From the NCBI GenBank assembly GCA_965223545.1, contig OZ245006.1:1440001-1504000 (forward strand): a stretch of DNA of 64,000 nucleotides, read 5' to 3'. Numbering within the stretch: position 1 is the stretch's first letter; every line of letters begins with the position of its first letter. This document shows, in pieces, positions 18,947 to 32,700 of the stretch. The notes beneath the pieces were generated by a model. That model saw only the letters and a list, made by a program, of their open reading frames with translations. It was not told where the DNA came from and ran no database searches. Made by a program: the position numbers and the translations under genes. Source of the DNA: Planctomycetota bacterium (lineage in GTDB: Bacteria > Planctomycetota > UBA1135 > UBA2386).

Positions 18947-19879
18947 TCAGCCCCGCGGGCGCAGGACGGGGAAATCCTGCACTGCCGAGTAGATCGCCGG
19001 CACGTAGCCGACGAGCTCGACCGATTCTGCCCATGCATCGCGCACGTGCGTGTCATCGAAGAAGGTCTGGCCGTACCGCTCCGCGACTGCGCCGAGCTTG
19101 GCGACTCGCGCAGGCTCGCTGGCGAAGTGAGCGCAGTGATCCATCGGGAACCGCCGCAGCGCACGCCGCGCGTCTTCCTGGCCGACTCCGGTCGCGCGAC
19201 TCCGCCCAGCGTCGCTGGCGATCGAGAACAGCGCGAACGGACCGAACGCGGTGATCATCAGCAAGCCGTCCGGCCGGCACACGCGCGCCAGCTCTCCGAT
19301 CCACCGCACGCCATCGTCGGGGTGCAGGTGCGAGAACACGGAAAGCGCGACGACCAGATCGACCGAGTCACTGTCGAGCTGCACCGGTGGAGAAGCACCG
19401 TTGACGAAGAACTGCGCATCGATGTGCGCGTCCGCCCACTCGATGCTGTCCGATCGGACATCGCACGCGCGCAGGCTCGCCCGGGGCAGAGCTGCGCGCA
19501 ACCACCGCGTCACTCGGCCCGGCCCACAGCCGAAATCGAGCACGTCGCGCACTCGTGACCACGACCCGCCGGCATGCAAATCCCACAGCGCTGGCACGGT
19601 CTCGAGGTGCTGGATGCCCAGCCAGAGGTGCTGCTGCGGCGTGTCGCCGCCACCGATGTTGCGCAGCAGTGCATCGGGGGGCGCCGGTGGGAAGAAGCCA
19701 CCGAGCCGATCGGGGTACTCGATGCCGCCGTTGGCCGCAGCCCAGCGCAGCAGCCCGGGGTCATCGGTGCCCGTGTAGTGGTCGCGAAGGTCTGCTCGCT
19801 CCCGGAAGATGGCAGCCAGGACCGCGCGGTACTCAGGGGCGGCCGGAAGAAGCCAGCCGGGTGCGTATGGCGCGTCCAT
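18947..19879 (-). CDS. Class I SAM-dependent methyltransferase
   Basis: VLDFGCGPGR; DLVVALSVFSHL; ELARVCRPDG. Confidence 0.9.
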   Translation of the reverse strand: MDAPYAPGWLLPAAPEYRAVLAAIFRERADLRDHYTGTDDPGLLRWAAANGGIEYPDRLGGFFPPAPPDALLRNIGGGDTPQQHLWLGIQHLETVPALWDLHAGGSWSRVRDVLDFGCGPGRVTRWLRAALPRASLRACDVRSDSIEWADAHIDAQFFVNGASPPVQLDSDSVDLVVALSVFSHLHPDDGVRWIGELARVCRPDGLLMITAFGPFALFSIASDAGRSRATGVGQEDARRALRRFPMDHCAHFASEPARVAKLGAVAERYGQTFFDDTHVRDAWAESVELVGYVPAIYSAVQDFPVLRPRG

Positions 19880-19961
19880 GCACGCCCAGGATGTCGCGGA
19901 CTCTCGCGCGGGCCCACCCCCTGTGCACTACGGATGCGACAAGCGGCACCGGCGCGGCGGC

Positions 19962-19993
19962 GCGAAGCGAGAGAATCGAGCCTGACACCGTAC
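19962..19993 (-). repeat. REP-like extragenic repeat, copy 1
   Basis: GCGAAGCGAGAGAATCGAGCCTGACACCGTAC; 27/32 identical to 55419-55450. Confidence 0.7.
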
Positions 19994-20050
19994 GTAGCGC
20001 TGCCCGGCCGGGGCCGGGCAGCGCTGCGCGTCGAAGGGAGATGGCGCGGC

Positions 20051-21127
20051 TCAGTCGTCGATGGCGGCAGCCACCAGGCAGCCGCGGGCGACCGAGGTCA
20101 GGGCCTCCTCAGCGCGGAACACCCGACCGATCGGGATCGGGAAGTCGATCTTGGCGAACTCGTCGCGGAACACCTCGATGAAGCCGCCGATCATGCTGGT
20201 GCCACCGGCGCAGGCGATGTCGACCGGCTCGTTGAACGACGGCATGTTCTCGCCGCTCTCGAAACGGTGCTTGATGTTCTGCAGCAGGTAGCTGATCAGG
20301 TTGCGGTAGTAGATCGAGATGGCCTCTTCTTCGCGGTTCTTCGGATCGCGAATGTCGCCGGCCCGTTCCTTCAGCAGAGTCGCCTTCGACTGGCGAATGC
20401 CGAGCACGTTGGCGACGTTCTTGTCGATCCAGTCGCCGCCGCGCGCCACCGAGAACGACAGGCACGGGATCGACTTGTAGCAGACGCAGGCGTTGGCCAT
20501 GCCACCGCCGAACGACAGGCCGATGCCGGTGAAGTCGCTGTCGGCGAGCTCGGAGAACACCACCGCGTGGGCCTCGTTGATGGCCTTGCCGGTGTAGCCC
20601 ATCTTGCCGAGCATGCTCTCGAACAGGCCCTGGTGGTAGACCACGTTGTTGTCGACGTCGAGCGACTCGGCAGGCACCGAGAAGTAGCAGTTCTCACCCG
20701 GCTTCACGGGCTCACCGAGCACCTTCTGGATGATCAGCTTGATCATCGGCATCGCGTCGACCTCGTTGGGGCTGATCAGCCCGTCGGACATCGGTCGCCG
20801 GGTCTCCTTGCCGAAGACGTTGGCCAGCTCGAACGCCGCCTCGCCGATCACGACGAGCTTGCCGTTGTGCACGACGTAGGGCACCTTGAGCTTGGTCAGC
20901 ATGTTCTTGGAGTAGACATCGCTCTGGATGTCCAAGAACGCGTTGCGCTCGACGGCGACGGTCACGCCACCGCTCTGGTCCTGCATCGCCGCCGCCAGGT
21001 TGGCGGTGCCGATGTCCAGGCCCTTACCGAGCGCGACATCCGCCGAGCTCTCGACTGCGGCGCCACCGACGGCGCCCGGATCGTCCCAGTTCTGGTTTTG
21101 GTCGTCGTTGTGCATGTTGTCGCTCAT
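20051..21127 (-). CDS. Actin-fold ATPase, volactin-like
   Basis: GLDIGTAN (phosphate 1), ETRRPMSDG, FSVPA, INEAHAVVFSEL, GLSFGGGMAN (phosphate 2), VARGGDWID, CAGGTS (adenosine), SVARG. Confidence 0.85.
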   Translation of the reverse strand: MSDNMHNDDQNQNWDDPGAVGGAAVESSADVALGKGLDIGTANLAAAMQDQSGGVTVAVERNAFLDIQSDVYSKNMLTKLKVPYVVHNGKLVVIGEAAFELANVFGKETRRPMSDGLISPNEVDAMPMIKLIIQKVLGEPVKPGENCYFSVPAESLDVDNNVVYHQGLFESMLGKMGYTGKAINEAHAVVFSELADSDFTGIGLSFGGGMANACVCYKSIPCLSFSVARGGDWIDKNVANVLGIRQSKATLLKERAGDIRDPKNREEEAISIYYRNLISYLLQNIKHRFESGENMPSFNEPVDIACAGGTSMIGGFIEVFRDEFAKIDFPIPIGRVFRAEEALTSVARGCLVAAAIDD

Positions 21128-21153
21128 GACTGCTTGCAGCTGATCTCGCTCGA

Positions 21154-22797
21154 TCAGCCTCCTCCCTTCAGTTTCTTCAAGCGCGCCAGGTTGGCAGCGA
21201 TGCCCCCACCGGTCTTCTTCTTGACCTGGACGTCGTCCATGTTGGACTCCAAGTTCTCATCTTGTCCGTGGGCAAACAGGCCGTCGAAGCTGACGTCGCC
21301 GGCCTCCACGGCGCTGCTGATGCCCATCTTGCGGCCGAACTTCTCCAGCCGGTCGTTGATCGAACCGGCCAGCTTGTTCAGCGCTTCGCTGATCTCGGGG
21401 TCGGCGCCACCACCGCCTCCACCACCGCTCGCCGCGGCGGGGGCTGAAGCCGGCCCCGTGCCGGTCATCATCTTCGCCTTGAGCTCCGCCACCTCGGTCA
21501 TCAGCTTCATGACGAGTTCCGGGTTGACGTCGGGGCTGCTCAGCGCGGCGGCGAGCATCTGCTGCTCGGGCGAAGCCGCAACCGGGTCGACGGCGGGCGC
21601 GGCCGGGGCCTGCGGTGACACCGGCGCAGCGGGCGCAGGCGGCGCAGCAGGCGCTGCCGGCACAGCGGACGGCTCCTGCGCCGAGGGTTGCGCCAACGGC
21701 GTGGGTTGCGGAGCGGCGGTCGGCGCCACTGGGGCAGACGCCGCAGCGGTGGGCGGTGCCGACGCAGCCGGCGCAGGATCGGCCATCCGCATCGGCTCGT
21801 GGATCGGGCCCGACGACTCCGGCATCGGCTGCACGTTGTGCACCTTGTGGGTCGCCTGCAGCGCGGTGAACTTGGACAGATGGCTCTCCAGATCCGCGAG
21901 CTGATCGCGGAACACGTCGTTGCGAGATTGGGCGCGGGCCAGCTCGGCACGCGCGGTCTCGAGGTCTCGCGCGGCGCGGTCGCGGTCTTCGCAGGCCTGG
22001 CGGAACTCCTCCGCCATGCCCTCGCTGCCCGCCGTGGCCGGCGAGGCCTGCGCCTTGGCCAACGCGGCCTGCGCCCGCTCCAGCTCGGCGCGGGCGGCCT
22101 GCAGCTCGCCGCGCAGCTGCTCGACCTCGCGCTGCAGAGCGTCCCGCTCGGCCGCGACCTTGTCGAGCCCAACCCGCAACGACGCGGCATCACCGCCCGC
22201 CGCATCCAGCTTCTCAGCCATCGCGTCTCGCTCCTGCTGGGCCTGCTGCTGCGCCGACCGCGCGGCCTGCAGAGCCTTCTCGAGCTCCCCGGTCGCGTCG
22301 CTCCGGTCGGCTTCGCGCAGCTTTGAGGCAAAACCGTCGCGCTCGGTGCGCAACTGATCGAGCTCGCCGCGGAGTTGCTCGAGCTCGACTTGCAACTCGA
22401 CGACCTGGGTCTCGAACACATCGCCAGGCCGGCCGAGCTCATCGCCAAGAGAACCGCTGTCGCGCAGGCTCTGTAGCTCGCCGGTGAGTTGCTCGCACTG
22501 TTGGCGCAGCGCGACGATCTCCTCCTCCGCACGCTGCGCGTCGGCGGCCTCGTCCTGGCGCTCCTTGACCAGGTGCTTGAACTCCTGCTGGCTGCGCGCG
22601 ACCAGGAGATCGACCTCCTCGCGCGACATCAGGCCGGAGCCCTCGATGGCCTTCTGCACGGCTTCTTGCAGCATCGCCGCGATGTGCTCCGCACGGATCA
22701 CCTTGACCAACCGACGCCCCTGGCTCTTGAGGTCGTCCAGGGTCGTGGTGCGCGACCTGGCAGCAAGTGCCTGCTTGACGTCGACGATCGAATCCAT
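21154..22797 (-). CDS. Long coiled-coil protein with Pro/Ala linker and helical C-terminal domain
   Basis: Start re-placed at ATG 22797 (MDSIVDVKQAL) after AGGAGG; heptad-rich E/Q/L/A/R core; PAAPAAPP tract; ends 26 nt upstream of the actin gene. Confidence 0.8.
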   Translation of the reverse strand: MDSIVDVKQALAARSRTTTLDDLKSQGRRLVKVIRAEHIAAMLQEAVQKAIEGSGLMSREEVDLLVARSQQEFKHLVKERQDEAADAQRAEEEIVALRQQCEQLTGELQSLRDSGSLGDELGRPGDVFETQVVELQVELEQLRGELDQLRTERDGFASKLREADRSDATGELEKALQAARSAQQQAQQERDAMAEKLDAAGGDAASLRVGLDKVAAERDALQREVEQLRGELQAARAELERAQAALAKAQASPATAGSEGMAEEFRQACEDRDRAARDLETARAELARAQSRNDVFRDQLADLESHLSKFTALQATHKVHNVQPMPESSGPIHEPMRMADPAPAASAPPTAAASAPVAPTAAPQPTPLAQPSAQEPSAVPAAPAAPPAPAAPVSPQAPAAPAVDPVAASPEQQMLAAALSSPDVNPELVMKLMTEVAELKAKMMTGTGPASAPAAASGGGGGGGADPEISEALNKLAGSINDRLEKFGRKMGISSAVEAGDVSFDGLFAHGQDENLESNMDDVQVKKKTGGGIAANLARLKKLKGGG

Positions 22798-23132
22798 GCG
22801 CCTCCTGCCCTTTGCGGGCCCGGAAAAGACGCAAGCTTTGTCGACCCAGCGCCCCCGCCGACTTGAGCCACAGCGGGACGGGAGTTCCCGGGTCGAGGTC
22901 GACGGATGAGACGGCTCATCCCCGCGGCATTCCCGCGGCCGCGGGAAGCCACGCGAAACGGACCACAACGCCGCGGAATCCGACACACCGGCAGCCGGAC
23001 GGTCGCCGGCCAGTCGCGGTCGTCCTTTCAGATCGACCGGGTCTGCCGGTCAAGGATGTTCGCCCCCAGATGAGGCACTGTCTCTCCGGGACTCGGCTCC
23101 GGACGCCCGTGTAACCTCTCGGCCCCGGACGC

Positions 23133-23573
23133 TCAGAAGGGGATGTCGCCGAAATCGACCTGGTCGCCGCCGCCTGCTTGAGCACCCCCGCCGGAGGCCG
23201 CACGACCGCCGCCGCCGCCGCTACCGCCTTCGCGCGACTCACCGCTGCGGCCACCGACGAACTGGAAGTTCTCGATGATCACTTCGAGCTTGCTGCGCTT
23301 GCCTCCGTCTTGGCTCTCCCAGGTCGAGTACTCGAGCCGCCCTTCGACGAACAGAGGGCTGCCCTTGCCGATGTACTGGTTGAGCACTTCGGCCTGCCGC
23401 CCGAACGCGGTCAGATCGACGAAACAGGTGTTTTCCTTGGTCTCGCCGTTGGTGGTGTACTTGCGGTTGACGGCCATTCCGAGCTTGGCAACGGCGGTGC
23501 CTCCCTGCGTGTACCGCACCTCGACGTCGCGGGTGAGGTTGCCCATCAGGATGACCTTGTTGAAATTCGCCAT
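23133..23573 (-). CDS. ssb: Single-stranded DNA-binding protein
   Basis: MANFNKVILMGNLTRD...VEGRL; Gly-rich linker; C-terminal DIPF. Confidence 0.97.
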   Translation of the reverse strand: MANFNKVILMGNLTRDVEVRYTQGGTAVAKLGMAVNRKYTTNGETKENTCFVDLTAFGRQAEVLNQYIGKGSPLFVEGRLEYSTWESQDGGKRSKLEVIIENFQFVGGRSGESREGGSGGGGGRAASGGGAQAGGGDQVDFGDIPF

Positions 23574-29721: not shown

Positions 29722-32700
29722 ATGTTCCTCCCCGCGTCTCTCGCCGCCCACGTCCTGCCGGGCCTCGTCGTCTTGGCGTCGGCGGTGGCCCAGCAGCCCG
29801 CCCGGCTGCTGCGCTTCCCCCACATGCAGGGCGACAAGATCGTCTTCGTCTACGCCGGCGACCTGTGGACCGCCTCCGCTGCCGGCGGCACGGCCCGGCG
29901 CCTCACCAGCTACGACGAGGGGCTCGAGCTGTCGCCGCGCATCTCACCCGACGGGCGTTGGGTCGCCTTCTCGGGTGAATACGCCGGCAGCCGCCAGATC
30001 TACGTCGTGCCGTACGAGGGCGGAACCCCGCGGCAGCTGACCTTCTATCCGGACGTCGGACCGCTGCCCCCGCGCGGCGGCTACGACCACTGGGTCGTCG
30101 ACTGGACCCCCGACGGCAGCAAGATCCTGATCCGCGCCAACCGCACCCCGTACGGCGAGCGCATCGGCCGCTACTTCACGGTCGATCCGGAGCGCGGCGG
30201 CATCCCCGAGCCGCTGGAGATTCCCGAGGGCGGCCCGGCGAGCTTCTCTCCGGACGGCAAGAAGCTCGCCTACAACATCATCAGCCGCGAGTGGCGCACC
30301 TGGAAGCGCTACCGCGCGGGGCGCGCCCAGGACGTGTGGATCTACGACCTCGAGGGGCGCTCGGTACGTCAAGTGACCGACTTCGAGGGCACCGACAACT
30401 TCCCGATGTGGCTGGGGGACACGATCTACTACACCTCGGACCGCGGCGGCACCCTCAACCTGCACGCCTACGATCTGGCGACCGGCGCGCACCGACAGGT
30501 CACGCACGAGACCGAGTGGGACGTGCTGTTTCCCGCGCGCGGCGACACCGGGGTCATCTACGAGTGCGGCGGTGCCCTCCACGTGATGCGCGCCGAGGAC
30601 GAGTCGGTCCGCAAGCTGGAGATCCGCATCGCCGACGACGGTCCCTGGCTGCGACCCCAGTGGAAGTCGGGGACGGTCGCCGACTGGAGTCCAGCGCCGT
30701 CGGCCAAGCGCATCGCGGTCGAGTACCGCGGCGAGCTGTTCTCGGTGCCAGCGGAGCACGGCGAGACCCGGCCGCTGACGCGCACCCCCGACCGGCGCGA
30801 ACGCCAGCCGCGCTGGTCGCCGGACGGCAAGACGCTGGCCTACCTCGCCGAAGTCGGTGACCACTACGAGCTGTGCGTGCGCGATCTCGGCACCGGCGAC
30901 GAACGCGTGCTGACGCGCGGCAGCGACGCCTGGATCCTCGGCCTGACCTGGTCGCCCGACAGCCGCACCCTCGCCTTCACCGACAAGCGCAACCGCTTGC
31001 TCTGCATCGACGCCGCCGGCGGTGACGCGCAGCTGATCGATCGCGGCACGCGGGCCCCGCTGCGCGACGTCGAGTGGTCGCCGGACAGCCGCTGGCTGTG
31101 CTACACCAAGGACGCCGACAACACCTACGACGCGGTGTGGCTCGCCGCCGCCGACGGCGGCACTCCGCCGCGGCGGGTCACCGATCCGTGGCACGACTCG
31201 AGCAGCCCCACGTTCGATCCGGACGGCCGCTATCTCTACTTCGTCTCGGCGCGCGACTTCGCGTTCGACGGTTTCGACGCGGAGCAGAGGCTGTACGCGC
31301 TGCTCTTGCAGGCCGACGCGCCGCATCCCCTGGCGCCGCGCAGCGACGAGGAGCCGGCGCTGGCCAGCGACGACGCCGACGACGACGCCTCGCAGGACGA
31401 GAGTGACGACGAAGCGGCCACCAACAACGAAGCCACCTCCACCGCCGCACCCCTGGCGATCGACTTCGACGGCATCGAGCAGCGCCTCGTGGTGCTGCCC
31501 GGTTCGCCCGGCCGCTACCGCGGCACCGCCGGCGTCGACGGCGGTGTGCTGTTCGTCCACGACGGTGCCCTGCGGCGCTACGACTTGGACAAACGGAAGA
31601 GCGAGGTCGTCCTCGACGCGGCGGTCGGCTTTGCGCTGACCGCCGACCGCAAGACGCTGGTCTATCGCCACGGTGCGGCGCTGTGCGTCGCCCCCGCGAA
31701 GCCCAAGCAGAAGCTGGGCGAGAACGCCGCGCCGCTCGACGGCGTCACCGTCCGGGTCGTGCCGCGGCGCGAGTGGCGGCAGATGTTCCACGACGCGTGG
31801 CGGCTGATGCGCGACTGGTTCTACGACCCCGACATGCACGGCGTCGACTGGCTCGCCATGCGGGCCAAGTACGAGCCGTTGCTGGAGCACGTCGCGCACC
31901 GGGCCGATCTCGACTTCGTCTTGGGCGAGCTGATCGGCGAGCTCAACTGCGGGCACACCTACGTGCAGAGCGGCGAGACGCCGCGGGTCGAGCGGGTGCG
32001 CACCGGCCTGCTGGGCTGTGAGTTCGAGCGGCGCGGCGAGCACTACGTCATCGCTTCGATCTACGCCGGCGAGAACTGGCACGAGCGCACGCGCAGCCCG
32101 TTGACCGAGCCCGGCGTCGACGCCCGGGTCGGCGACTTCGTGCTCGCGATCGACGGCGTGCCGCTGCACGGCGACGACTCGCCCTACCGCCTGCTCGAGA
32201 ACACCGTCGGCAAGACGGTGACGTTGACGCTCAACGACACGCCCACCGAGACCGGTGCCCGCCGCGTCAAGGTGCGCCCGATCGCTTCCGAACAAGGCCT
32301 GCGCTATCTCGCCTGGGTGCGGCACAACCGCGCGCTGGTGCACGAGCTGTCGGACGGCCGCATCGGCTACGTGCACGTGCCCAACACCGCGGTCGAGGGG
32401 CACCGCGAGCTGTTCACCGGCTTCCGCGCCCAGGCGCGCACCGCCGCGGCGATGATCATCGACGACCGCTACAACGGCGGCGGCTGGATCCCCGACCGCA
32501 TGGCGTTCGCCCTGGGACAGCCGGTGCTCAACTACTGGGCGCGCCGGCATCAGGGACTGGCGCCGACGCCGCAGTTCGCGTTCGAGGGGCCGATGGCGAT
32601 GCTGATCAACGGCTACTCGTCGTCGGGCGGCGACGCGTTTCCGTTCTACTTCCGCGCCACCGGCCGCGGGCCGCTGATCGGCAAGCGAACCTGGGGCGGC

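Follow-up and report, generated by a model that had tools for sequence, protein, structure and literature searches.

The window analysed here, a 64,000-nucleotide stretch of a Planctomycetota genome (contig OZ245006.1, positions 1,440,001 to 1,504,000), carries two adjacent genes, one encoding an actin assigned by its sequence to the volactin family and the other, immediately upstream, encoding a 547-residue protein that we term the adaptor. We propose that the two probably form a dedicated actin-plus-adaptor module of Planctomycetota, in which the C-terminal tail of the adaptor would dock in a cleft of the actin, a long central spacer would act as a tether and probably dimerise, and the N-terminal domain (N-domain) would attach the protein elsewhere in the cell. 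Planctomycetota divide without FtsZ, and the pair points to an undescribed two-part cytoskeleton in bacteria that lack this protein.

A sequence-only reading of the window had described a 547-residue protein encoded 26 nt upstream of an actin gene and consisting of a short N-terminal domain, a long coiled coil, a disordered Pro/Ala linker, a glycine hinge and an acidic C-terminal segment ending in an amphipathic basic helix. The open reading frame (ORF), the spacing and the composition of each region confirm this layout (Table 1), and a promoter/terminator scan found no terminator-like site in the gap between the two genes. One genome per species was then scanned for close relatives, which yielded 79 loci with an actin 70-86% identical to that of the window. 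Nearly all are labelled Planctomycetota metagenome-assembled genomes (MAGs), with some labelled ‘Luminiphilus sp.’, ‘bacterium’ or ‘Brocadiaceae’. As judged by tblastn and ORF extraction, an adaptor homologue lies directly upstream of the actin, on the same strand, in 75 of the 79. The four others (L034, L074, L077 and L078) start inside the actin gene and have no upstream DNA, i.e. the pairing suggested by the sequence-only reading is conserved in 75/75 related loci with upstream sequence. The start codon and N-terminus of the adaptor are kept in 70 homologues, and the adaptor gene is no chance ORF. No third gene is kept with the pair, the upstream and downstream flanks falling into several synteny groups.

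The linkage also extends across the phylum. We surveyed 401 sampled genomes by profile searches with the Pfam Volactin family PF25216, with A2, a narrow tail profile made from the C-terminal domain (C-domain) of close relatives, and with A5, a broader tail profile built after diverged tails were found. PF25216 was above cut-off in 149/401 genomes. A2 matched in 81/401, and all 81 also have a strong actin match. When coordinates were compared by hand, 73 of the 84 A2 matches were found directly upstream of a listed actin match and on the same strand, six were unlinked to the actin (all in family f56), and five were not judged, the actin rows for those contigs not being among those listed. Thus, the co-occurrence of the C-terminal motif with the actin gene, which the sequence-only reading had named as a check, holds in Planctomycetota. 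From genomes with an actin but no A2 match, 22 further loci were fetched, and in 17 of these the upstream ORF ends in a diverged tail with the core …LF…[ES][ST]N[LIVM]…G[IVL]xx[SN]Lx[RK]L[RK]x[LMA][RK]G. A5 matched in 116/401 genomes, 113 of them at E<1e-7; all A5-positive genomes but G202 have a PF25216 match (112/113 of the E<1e-7 set). Furthermore, the two genes have been duplicated together: G108, G113, G129 and G204 each have two subfamily-A actins and two adaptors, each adaptor beside its own actin.

More distant actins were also considered. Family f7 has a divergent type that shares 20-31% identity with the other actins, and its loci L081 and L082 lack a partner of this kind. A second planctomycete volactin subfamily (L112-L121) is ~35% identical to the window actin, and in nine of its ten loci a different upstream ORF of ~200 residues abuts the actin on the same strand. 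It has an N-domain of the form MWIVKN…VAFEEGYL and, in seven of the nine, a tail reading …DLLSNI or a close variant, the tails of L112 and L121 being more diverged. By sequence, this ORF is unrelated to the window adaptor and built on the same plan. On the tentative portable-motif reading given below, the second subfamily with its own, unrelated tail-bearing partner would suggest that an actin with an upstream tail-adaptor is the general rule of the family.

Within the adaptor, only the two ends are conserved. The N-domain has a mean column identity of 64% over the 71 sequences of alignment A3, and the C-domain 65% over the 71 of alignment A2, with K31, G33, A37, E58, N60, G73, I74, L78 and L84 invariant (numbered in an 88-residue piece covering residues 460-547). 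The coiled coil and the Pro/Ala spacer (38 Ala and 29 Pro among residues 326-457) vary widely in length. Most homologues are only 220-290 residues long, as against 547 in the window and 694 in L002, so the window protein is a version with an expanded spacer. The coiled-coil character of residues ~86-321 rests solely on sub-threshold matches to SMC, Rad50 and coiled-coil families, and Pfam and NCBIfam scans of the whole adaptor assigned no family, returning only such sub-threshold coiled-coil matches. Cluster searches with the adaptor family gave 336 and 367 matches; among those listed (120 each), all named members are Planctomycetota, and the named homologues are labelled ‘hypothetical’ or generic coiled-coil. 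An ESM Atlas search with the tail gave no usable match, one with a short homologue returned only unnamed or coiled-coil clusters (<=0.85), and the C-domain profile A2 found nothing significant among PDB sequences. In one locus (L095, from G016) the adaptor carries two tandem copies of the tail helix.

The actin scores 283.8 bits on PF25216 (cut-off 35) over profile positions 3-321 of 321, and the genome-wide profile search gave the same assignment; on this sequence evidence it is a volactin. Judged by alignment A4 (70 sequences, mean column identity 81%), it is unusually conserved within its subfamily. The sequence has no relative in the PDB at E<=1. The AlphaFold2 (AF2) model has a predicted local distance difference test score (pLDDT) of 68, falling below 50 for residues 186-229 in the hinge region. 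Its closest solved folds are MamK, the top match, and MreB, at 18-19% identity; structural alignment to ParM gives only ~13%. Two published proteins were considered and rejected as its equivalents. Saltatorellin, a planctomycete MamK-like actin, is a different protein, as the primers given in the accessible part of its preprint (10.1101/817700) encode other termini than those of the window actin, and the actin-like protein of ‘Ca. Uab amorphum’ is, according to the accessible part of its description, lokiactin-like and not volactin-like.

We modelled the complex of the actin with the 88-residue C-domain piece (residues 460-547) from alignments of both, in three runs and with three controls. 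The interaction prediction score from aligned errors (ipSAE) was 0.67 (0.67, 0.58 and 0.72 in the individual runs) compared with 0.00 for the best control, and at least 58% of the contacts were common to the runs. The suggestion of the sequence-only reading that the tail may bind the actin is thereby borne out as a controlled prediction. In calibration, 116 of 157 solved complexes and 2 of 215 mismatched pairs attained this mark, figures that are only a rough guide when alignments are user-supplied. On the adaptor side, the predicted interface comprises residues 516-520, 522-537 and 539-544, i.e. LESNM…DVQVKKKTGGGIAANL…RLKKLK (57-61, 63-78 and 80-85 of the piece). On the actin side, it comprises residues 49-60, 77-87, 94-96, 131-136, 191-199, 218-219 and 341-356. 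The pairs of lowest error place I533, N536, L537 and L540 of the tail helix against F191, A195, F199, S219, G349, V352, A355 and I356 of the actin. Given the secondary structure of the actin model and the positions of its motifs (phosphate-1 DIGTAN, 38-43; phosphate-2 SFGGGMAN, 205-212; adenosine GGTS), residues 184-199 form the helix before phosphate 2 and residues 345-357 the C-terminal helix. In actin, ParM and MreB, the corresponding two elements presumably line the cleft between subdomains IA and IIA. The model thus supports docking of the tail in the cleft that the hinge helix and the C-terminal helix enclose, and the residues lining this cleft are conserved between the window actin and a Haloarcula volactin.

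From these elements a mechanism can be proposed. The tail, with an extended segment that includes ESN and then the amphipathic helix GIAANLARLKKLK, would dock in a hydrophobic cleft made of the hinge helix (F191, A195, F199) and the C-terminal helix (V352, I356). The helical spacer and Pro/Ala linker, free to vary in length, would dimerise and serve as a flexible tether, and the helical N-domain of ~85 residues would attach the adaptor to some cellular site. In other actins, the cleft between hinge and C-terminal helix serves the longitudinal contact between subunits and receives end-binding factors; we therefore favour binding to filament ends (anchoring, nucleation or capping) over binding to their sides. 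The cellular role of the adaptor would then be to hold, nucleate or cap the ends of filaments and to link these to whatever its N-domain targets.

A parallel in haloarchaea bears on this proposal. Volactins encoded on megaplasmids of Natrinema, Haloarcula and Halogeometricum share 42-43% identity with the window actin across 90% of its length, and the PF25216 score of one of them is 447 bits. Each of the three genera has, a short way upstream of the volactin gene and in the same orientation, a gene of ~300 codons, the gaps measuring 97, 166 and 301 nt. Its product has a DUF7139 domain (124-163 bits) with several hydrophobic helices, about four of them transmembrane; after this come a linker of acidic character, then a helix that fits G[VI]xxx[VL]xxL[KR]xL[KR]GG, and one more C-terminal helix. 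In our plasmid collection, this protein is confined to the five records with a volactin gene. When A5 was scored, filters off, against the 949 six-frame ORFs of at least 80 residues from three 50-kb haloarchaeal stretches, these upstream ORFs ranked 1, 4 and 5, each being first in its own stretch. A short partner is found in G354, a small planctomycete genome, where a protein of just ~130 residues combines a hydrophobic N-terminus with the tail. Together, the haloarchaeal and G354 cases suggest a constant actin-binding tail placed on interchangeable localisation modules. On the Halogeometricum plasmid pHBOR01 (L128, locus 29886-32486), genes annotated as rod-determining factor RdfA and as an archaea-specific SMC-related protein lie ~4-6 kb from volactin, so that cell-shape genes of Schiller et al. 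are clustered with volactin there.

The Haloferax volcanii volactin, VolA, reportedly forms dynamic filaments and affects cell shape. According to the accessible text of Schiller et al. (PMC10869688), volactin filaments make contact with the membrane at their tips, and the authors propose unknown volactin-binding factors that regulate depolymerisation. In the accessible part of a second paper (PMC12126565), a CdpA-like protein with four transmembrane helices, HVO_2016, is noted to adjoin volactin; CdpA itself is described there as a membrane anchor in which a disordered linker joins a transmembrane domain to a small C-terminal domain, and volactin is weakly enriched in a CdpA pull-down (log2 fold change, Log2FC, 2.5, p 0.06). 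The sequence-only reading knew of no described bacterial system with this pairing. That statement stands in so far as we found no paper on the bacterial pair, but the adjacency of HVO_2016 and volactin was already in print. We also venture, tentatively and with the balance of probability against it, that the tail, with its ESN segment and L[KR]xL[KR]GG helix, is a portable motif for binding volactins that archaea and bacteria have in common, a prokaryotic counterpart of WH2 or of the ParR tail. Evolution would have joined it to varied carriers, on each of which it would fasten or nucleate filament tips: haloarchaea would use a four-transmembrane CdpA-like domain, the small genome G354 one hydrophobic helix, and most Planctomycetota a soluble N-domain followed by a coiled coil.

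Several points weigh against the module as we propose it. Firstly, the binding of tail to actin is a computational prediction. In the complex, the pLDDT of the adaptor chain is just 50-55, and the alignments are shallow, the actin rows being 71-87% identical to the query. The score may also partly reflect memory of solved structures, since helix-in-actin-cleft complexes, such as that of ParM with a ParR peptide (4a62), have already been solved. The interface was assigned to the cleft through motif positions and secondary structure, on a lone-actin model that is weak in the hinge. Secondly, the haloarchaeal ORFs score only 12.6, 7.6 and 4.1 bits with A5, and the three proteins are homologous to each other, which makes them roughly one suggestive observation; the haloarchaeal co-occurrence is that of a similar helix in the upstream neighbour of three genera, at a level of only 4-13 bits. 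Thirdly, family f56 has the adaptor on a different contig from the actin or 40-93 kb away from it, so linkage in one operon is not obligatory. Finally, the N-domain has no recognisable fold or family, so that its attachment target is only a guess. Its AF2 model has four helices at a pLDDT of 74.8. Nothing significant was found among PDB sequences with profile A3, no PDB match by Foldseek at E<=0.001, and in the VIA wide fold search the best Z was 6.0, all matches being helical hairpins and under the noise level for helical models.

If the N-domain bound DNA, the pair could be a segregation system like ParMRC, in which a ParR- or KfrA-like adaptor would hold a centromere or operator through its N-domain and the actin would push or pull the DNA. 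We consider this unlikely, although it is the alternative that fares best. It has the logic of ParR and ParM, an adaptor with a C-terminal actin-binding helix (predicted here; 4a62), and salactin, a different haloarchaeal actin, aids DNA partitioning according to the accessible part of PMC10869688. It would also give a role to a DNA element upstream of the adaptor gene. The element CTCAAGT-N16-(C/T)CGAAA occurs with fixed spacing in 65 of 70 upstream sequences (the window and loci L002-L080), at a distance from the adaptor ATG of 64-77 nt in 64 sequences and of 97 nt in the remaining one. The strict pattern CTCAAGT-N16-CGAAA is rare elsewhere in the genome, with just two occurrences in 8.1 Mb. 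CTCAAGT often follows a GTCCCG…CGGGAC hairpin, and a GC-rich hairpin often lies between the element and the GAGG ribosome site. The conserved element is single-copy, and it may be an operon-specific promoter, operator or leader. A partition system would be expected to have more: a search of positions 22750-23200 found no iterated repeats beside the operon, only two-copy short repeats and one palindrome. The palindrome, TTCCCGCGGCCGCGGGAA, is perfect over 18 bp and stands beside a direct repeat (CATCCCCGCGG / CATTCCCGCGG) at 22917-22947, ~120-150 nt upstream of the adaptor start.

The N-domain itself offers weak hints of DNA binding. Sub-threshold matches to KfrA_N (12/71 sequences, best E 0.015) and UPF0175 (4/71, best E 0.0009) were obtained, and a basic, strand-like RVRLIR followed by two helices resembles, by eye, a ribbon-helix-helix (RHH) layout. 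No RHH or helix-turn-helix (HTH) family is significant in Pfam or NCBIfam scans of the N-domain members, however, and a search of the source genome with KfrA_N (PF11740) misses the adaptor gene, its best E of 0.014 falling elsewhere. Moreover, the module is chromosomal and places the adaptor gene first, unlike parM-parR. The equivalents in haloarchaea and in G354 have hydrophobic or transmembrane N-termini, which argues for anchoring to the envelope rather than to DNA. The N-domain of the window adaptor has no hydrophobic segment in its translated sequence and no DUF7139 match in the Pfam scan.

We then considered whether the C-terminal helix could itself be a membrane-targeting element as in MinD or FtsA, making the adaptor a membrane scaffold with no contact between tail and actin; attachment to the membrane had been raised by the sequence-only reading. 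The tail closes the protein with a helix that is basic and amphipathic and ends in Gly-Gly, and in this it does resemble the MinD tail. The helix is nearly invariant in 71 sequences, however, whereas lipid-binding helices are rarely so well conserved; the hydrophobic moment reaches 0.41 (best 11-mer, Eisenberg scale), a modest value that is not decisive, and aromatic residues are absent. In the controlled complex model the helix sits on the actin, and the haloarchaeal motif carriers, already provided with about four transmembrane helices, have no need of such a helix. Direct membrane attachment by the tail is thus less likely than actin binding, and the scaffold as a whole improbable. Equally improbable is a thymosin- or profilin-like regulator whose tail sequesters monomers or inhibits polymerisation and whose remainder is regulatory rather than localising: the predicted site is the longitudinal-contact cleft of other actins, occupancy of which could block assembly, and depolymerisation-regulating volactin binders have been suggested (accessible text of PMC10869688), but simple sequestration needs neither a conserved N-domain nor a long tether, and the membrane-embedded haloarchaeal counterpart and the filament tips that touch the membrane (same source) fit anchoring better.

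Table 1. Features of the adaptor-actin locus, in window coordinates.
Feature	Position	Strand	Extent and basis
Volactin-family actin gene	20051..21127	(-)	358 aa; PF25216, E 2.8e-84
Gap from adaptor stop (21154-21156) to actin ATG (21127)	21128..21153		26 nt
Adaptor gene	21154..22797	(-)	547 aa; ORF translation
Conserved C-domain	21157..21405	(-)	residues 465-547, ending GGGIAANLARLKKLKGGG; alignment A2
Two-part tail LESNM…GGGIAANLARLKKLK, predicted actin-contacting segment	21166..21252	(-)	residues 516-544; core [ST]N…G[IVL]xxxLx[RK]L[RK] kept in diverged adaptors
Seven-glycine run	21406..21426	(-)	residues 458-464
Pro/Ala-rich linker	21427..21834	(-)	residues 322-457; composition
Short conserved helix (one) inside the linker	21466-21519	(-)	residues 427-444; consensus of alignment A1
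Variable helical, coiled-coil-like spacer	21835..22542	(-)	residues ~86-321
Conserved N-domain, helical	22543..22797	(-)	residues 1-85; alignment A3
AGGAGG ribosome-binding site of adaptor gene	22801..22806	(-)	5 nt before ATG at 22797; sequence read
Conserved upstream element	22837..22867	(-)	CTCAAGT (22861-22867), 16 nt, TCGACAAA (22837-22844)

The surroundings of the pair are ordinary. On one side lie ssb, a PilZ-domain gene, prmC, a membrane protein gene and prfA, and on the other a methyltransferase gene, a CotH-family gene and dprA; none of the neighbouring genes is a magnetosome gene. The scan found no promoter-like site at the locus and two terminator-like sites, both within coding DNA, as against 1.6 expected by chance, and an Rfam search of 19800-23300 returned nothing at E<=1. 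The source genome (8.1 Mb, ~70% G+C, 91% complete) has a canonical MreB at C1:153750-154730 and, at this completeness, no tubulin/FtsZ-family match. Besides MreB and the volactin-type gene, it has a further actin-like gene at C1:7077053-7078021, which scores 61.7 bits on the MreB profile.

Other variations were seen around related actins. In 38 of the related loci (L006 and 37 others), the gene downstream of the actin is convergent, on the opposite strand, and belongs to one family, whose N-terminus looks by eye like a cell-wall amidase and is followed by a fibronectin-like region. In family f56 (L086 of G168, L085, L110 and L111), the actin is preceded by a long open frame that is acidic and runs to several hundred codons, and a 208-residue ORF downstream of the actin begins with an amphipathic basic helix like the tail helix. 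Seven genomes (G009, G125, G388, G245, G016, G320 and G375) have tandem duplicated volactin-type genes behind one adaptor. A cluster search for volactin-family genes gave 1128 representatives. Those of 700-750 residues, P0167 among them, have two matched stretches, which suggests fused double actins. Of ten distant actin representatives that were looked up, one has an organism name, that of a Euryarchaeota MAG. A single-protein query for the metagenome contexts of distant volactins found nothing.

Our literature search, with supplements outside its scope, found no paper on volactin-type actins or such a partner in Planctomycetota, and the one paper that names both volactin and planctomycetes lists the organisms separately. 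An actin present in 149 of 401 genomes is of interest for how FtsZ-less Planctomycetota organise division and shape. The adaptor gives a residue-level hypothesis for how volactin-type filaments are held, and the helix motif of the DUF7139, CdpA-like neighbour is a specific candidate for a volactin-binding factor. If the portable-motif idea were true, the unusually conserved actin could, together with its adaptor, form machinery central to the shape or division of these bacteria.

The proposed module can be compared with several known systems. The sequence-only reading had likened the adaptor to scaffolds of the PopZ, DivIVA and crescentin type, with which it shares a coiled-coil-rich build and disordered, Pro/Ala-rich segments. 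This likeness did not hold up: no DivIVA or PopZ family was matched at E up to 1, the Filament family PF00038 scored 12 bits against a cut-off of 40, and the coiled coil of the window adaptor is a length-variable spacer between two conserved ends rather than a conserved scaffold domain. MamK with MamJ or MamY, in magnetotactic bacteria, likewise combines a bacterial actin, here the top structural match, with coiled-coil or acidic adaptors, but the window adaptor shares no Pfam family with MamJ or MamY.

The closest functional models are ParR and WH2. Like ParM-ParR of plasmid R1 (type II partition), the pair consists of an actin-like ATPase and a dedicated adaptor encoded beside it, and the C-terminal helix of ParR sits in a hydrophobic pocket of ParM (4a62), an arrangement that is a prediction only for the window tail. 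Unlike ParM-ParR, the window module is chromosomal and vertically conserved, with the adaptor gene first and an actin only ~13% identical to ParM. Its adaptor has no detected RHH domain, and the monomer model cannot form the dimeric ribbon; no iteron centromere lies beside the operon, and the tail is in two parts, with an ESN segment besides the helix. WH2 and thymosin-beta place a short amphipathic helix and a basic L-K-K-type motif in the cleft between subdomains 1 and 3 of eukaryotic actin; the window helix carries LKKLK and is predicted in the equivalent cleft. Pfam WH2 is not listed at E up to 1, however, and the tail departs from the helix-linker-LKKV order of WH2, its extended segment standing before the helix; the likeness is functional and not one of homology. 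The window adaptor would act like ParR or WH2 yet belongs to neither family.

As a system, its nearest relative is the haloarchaeal volactin with its CdpA-like neighbour, in print as an adjacency only. H. volcanii volactin (VolA, HVO_2015), adjoined by HVO_2016, is likewise an actin of the PF25216 family. The upstream, same-strand neighbour in the three haloarchaeal genera has the same order of anchor, linker and tail with an L[KR]xL[KR]GG helix, HVO_2016 being known here from its description alone. CdpA and the DUF7139 anchors share with the window adaptor a disordered linker, a small C-terminal domain or motif and a position beside a cytoskeletal gene. They differ from it in the anchor, which is the four-transmembrane DUF7139 domain in haloarchaea and a soluble N-domain with coiled coil in the window.

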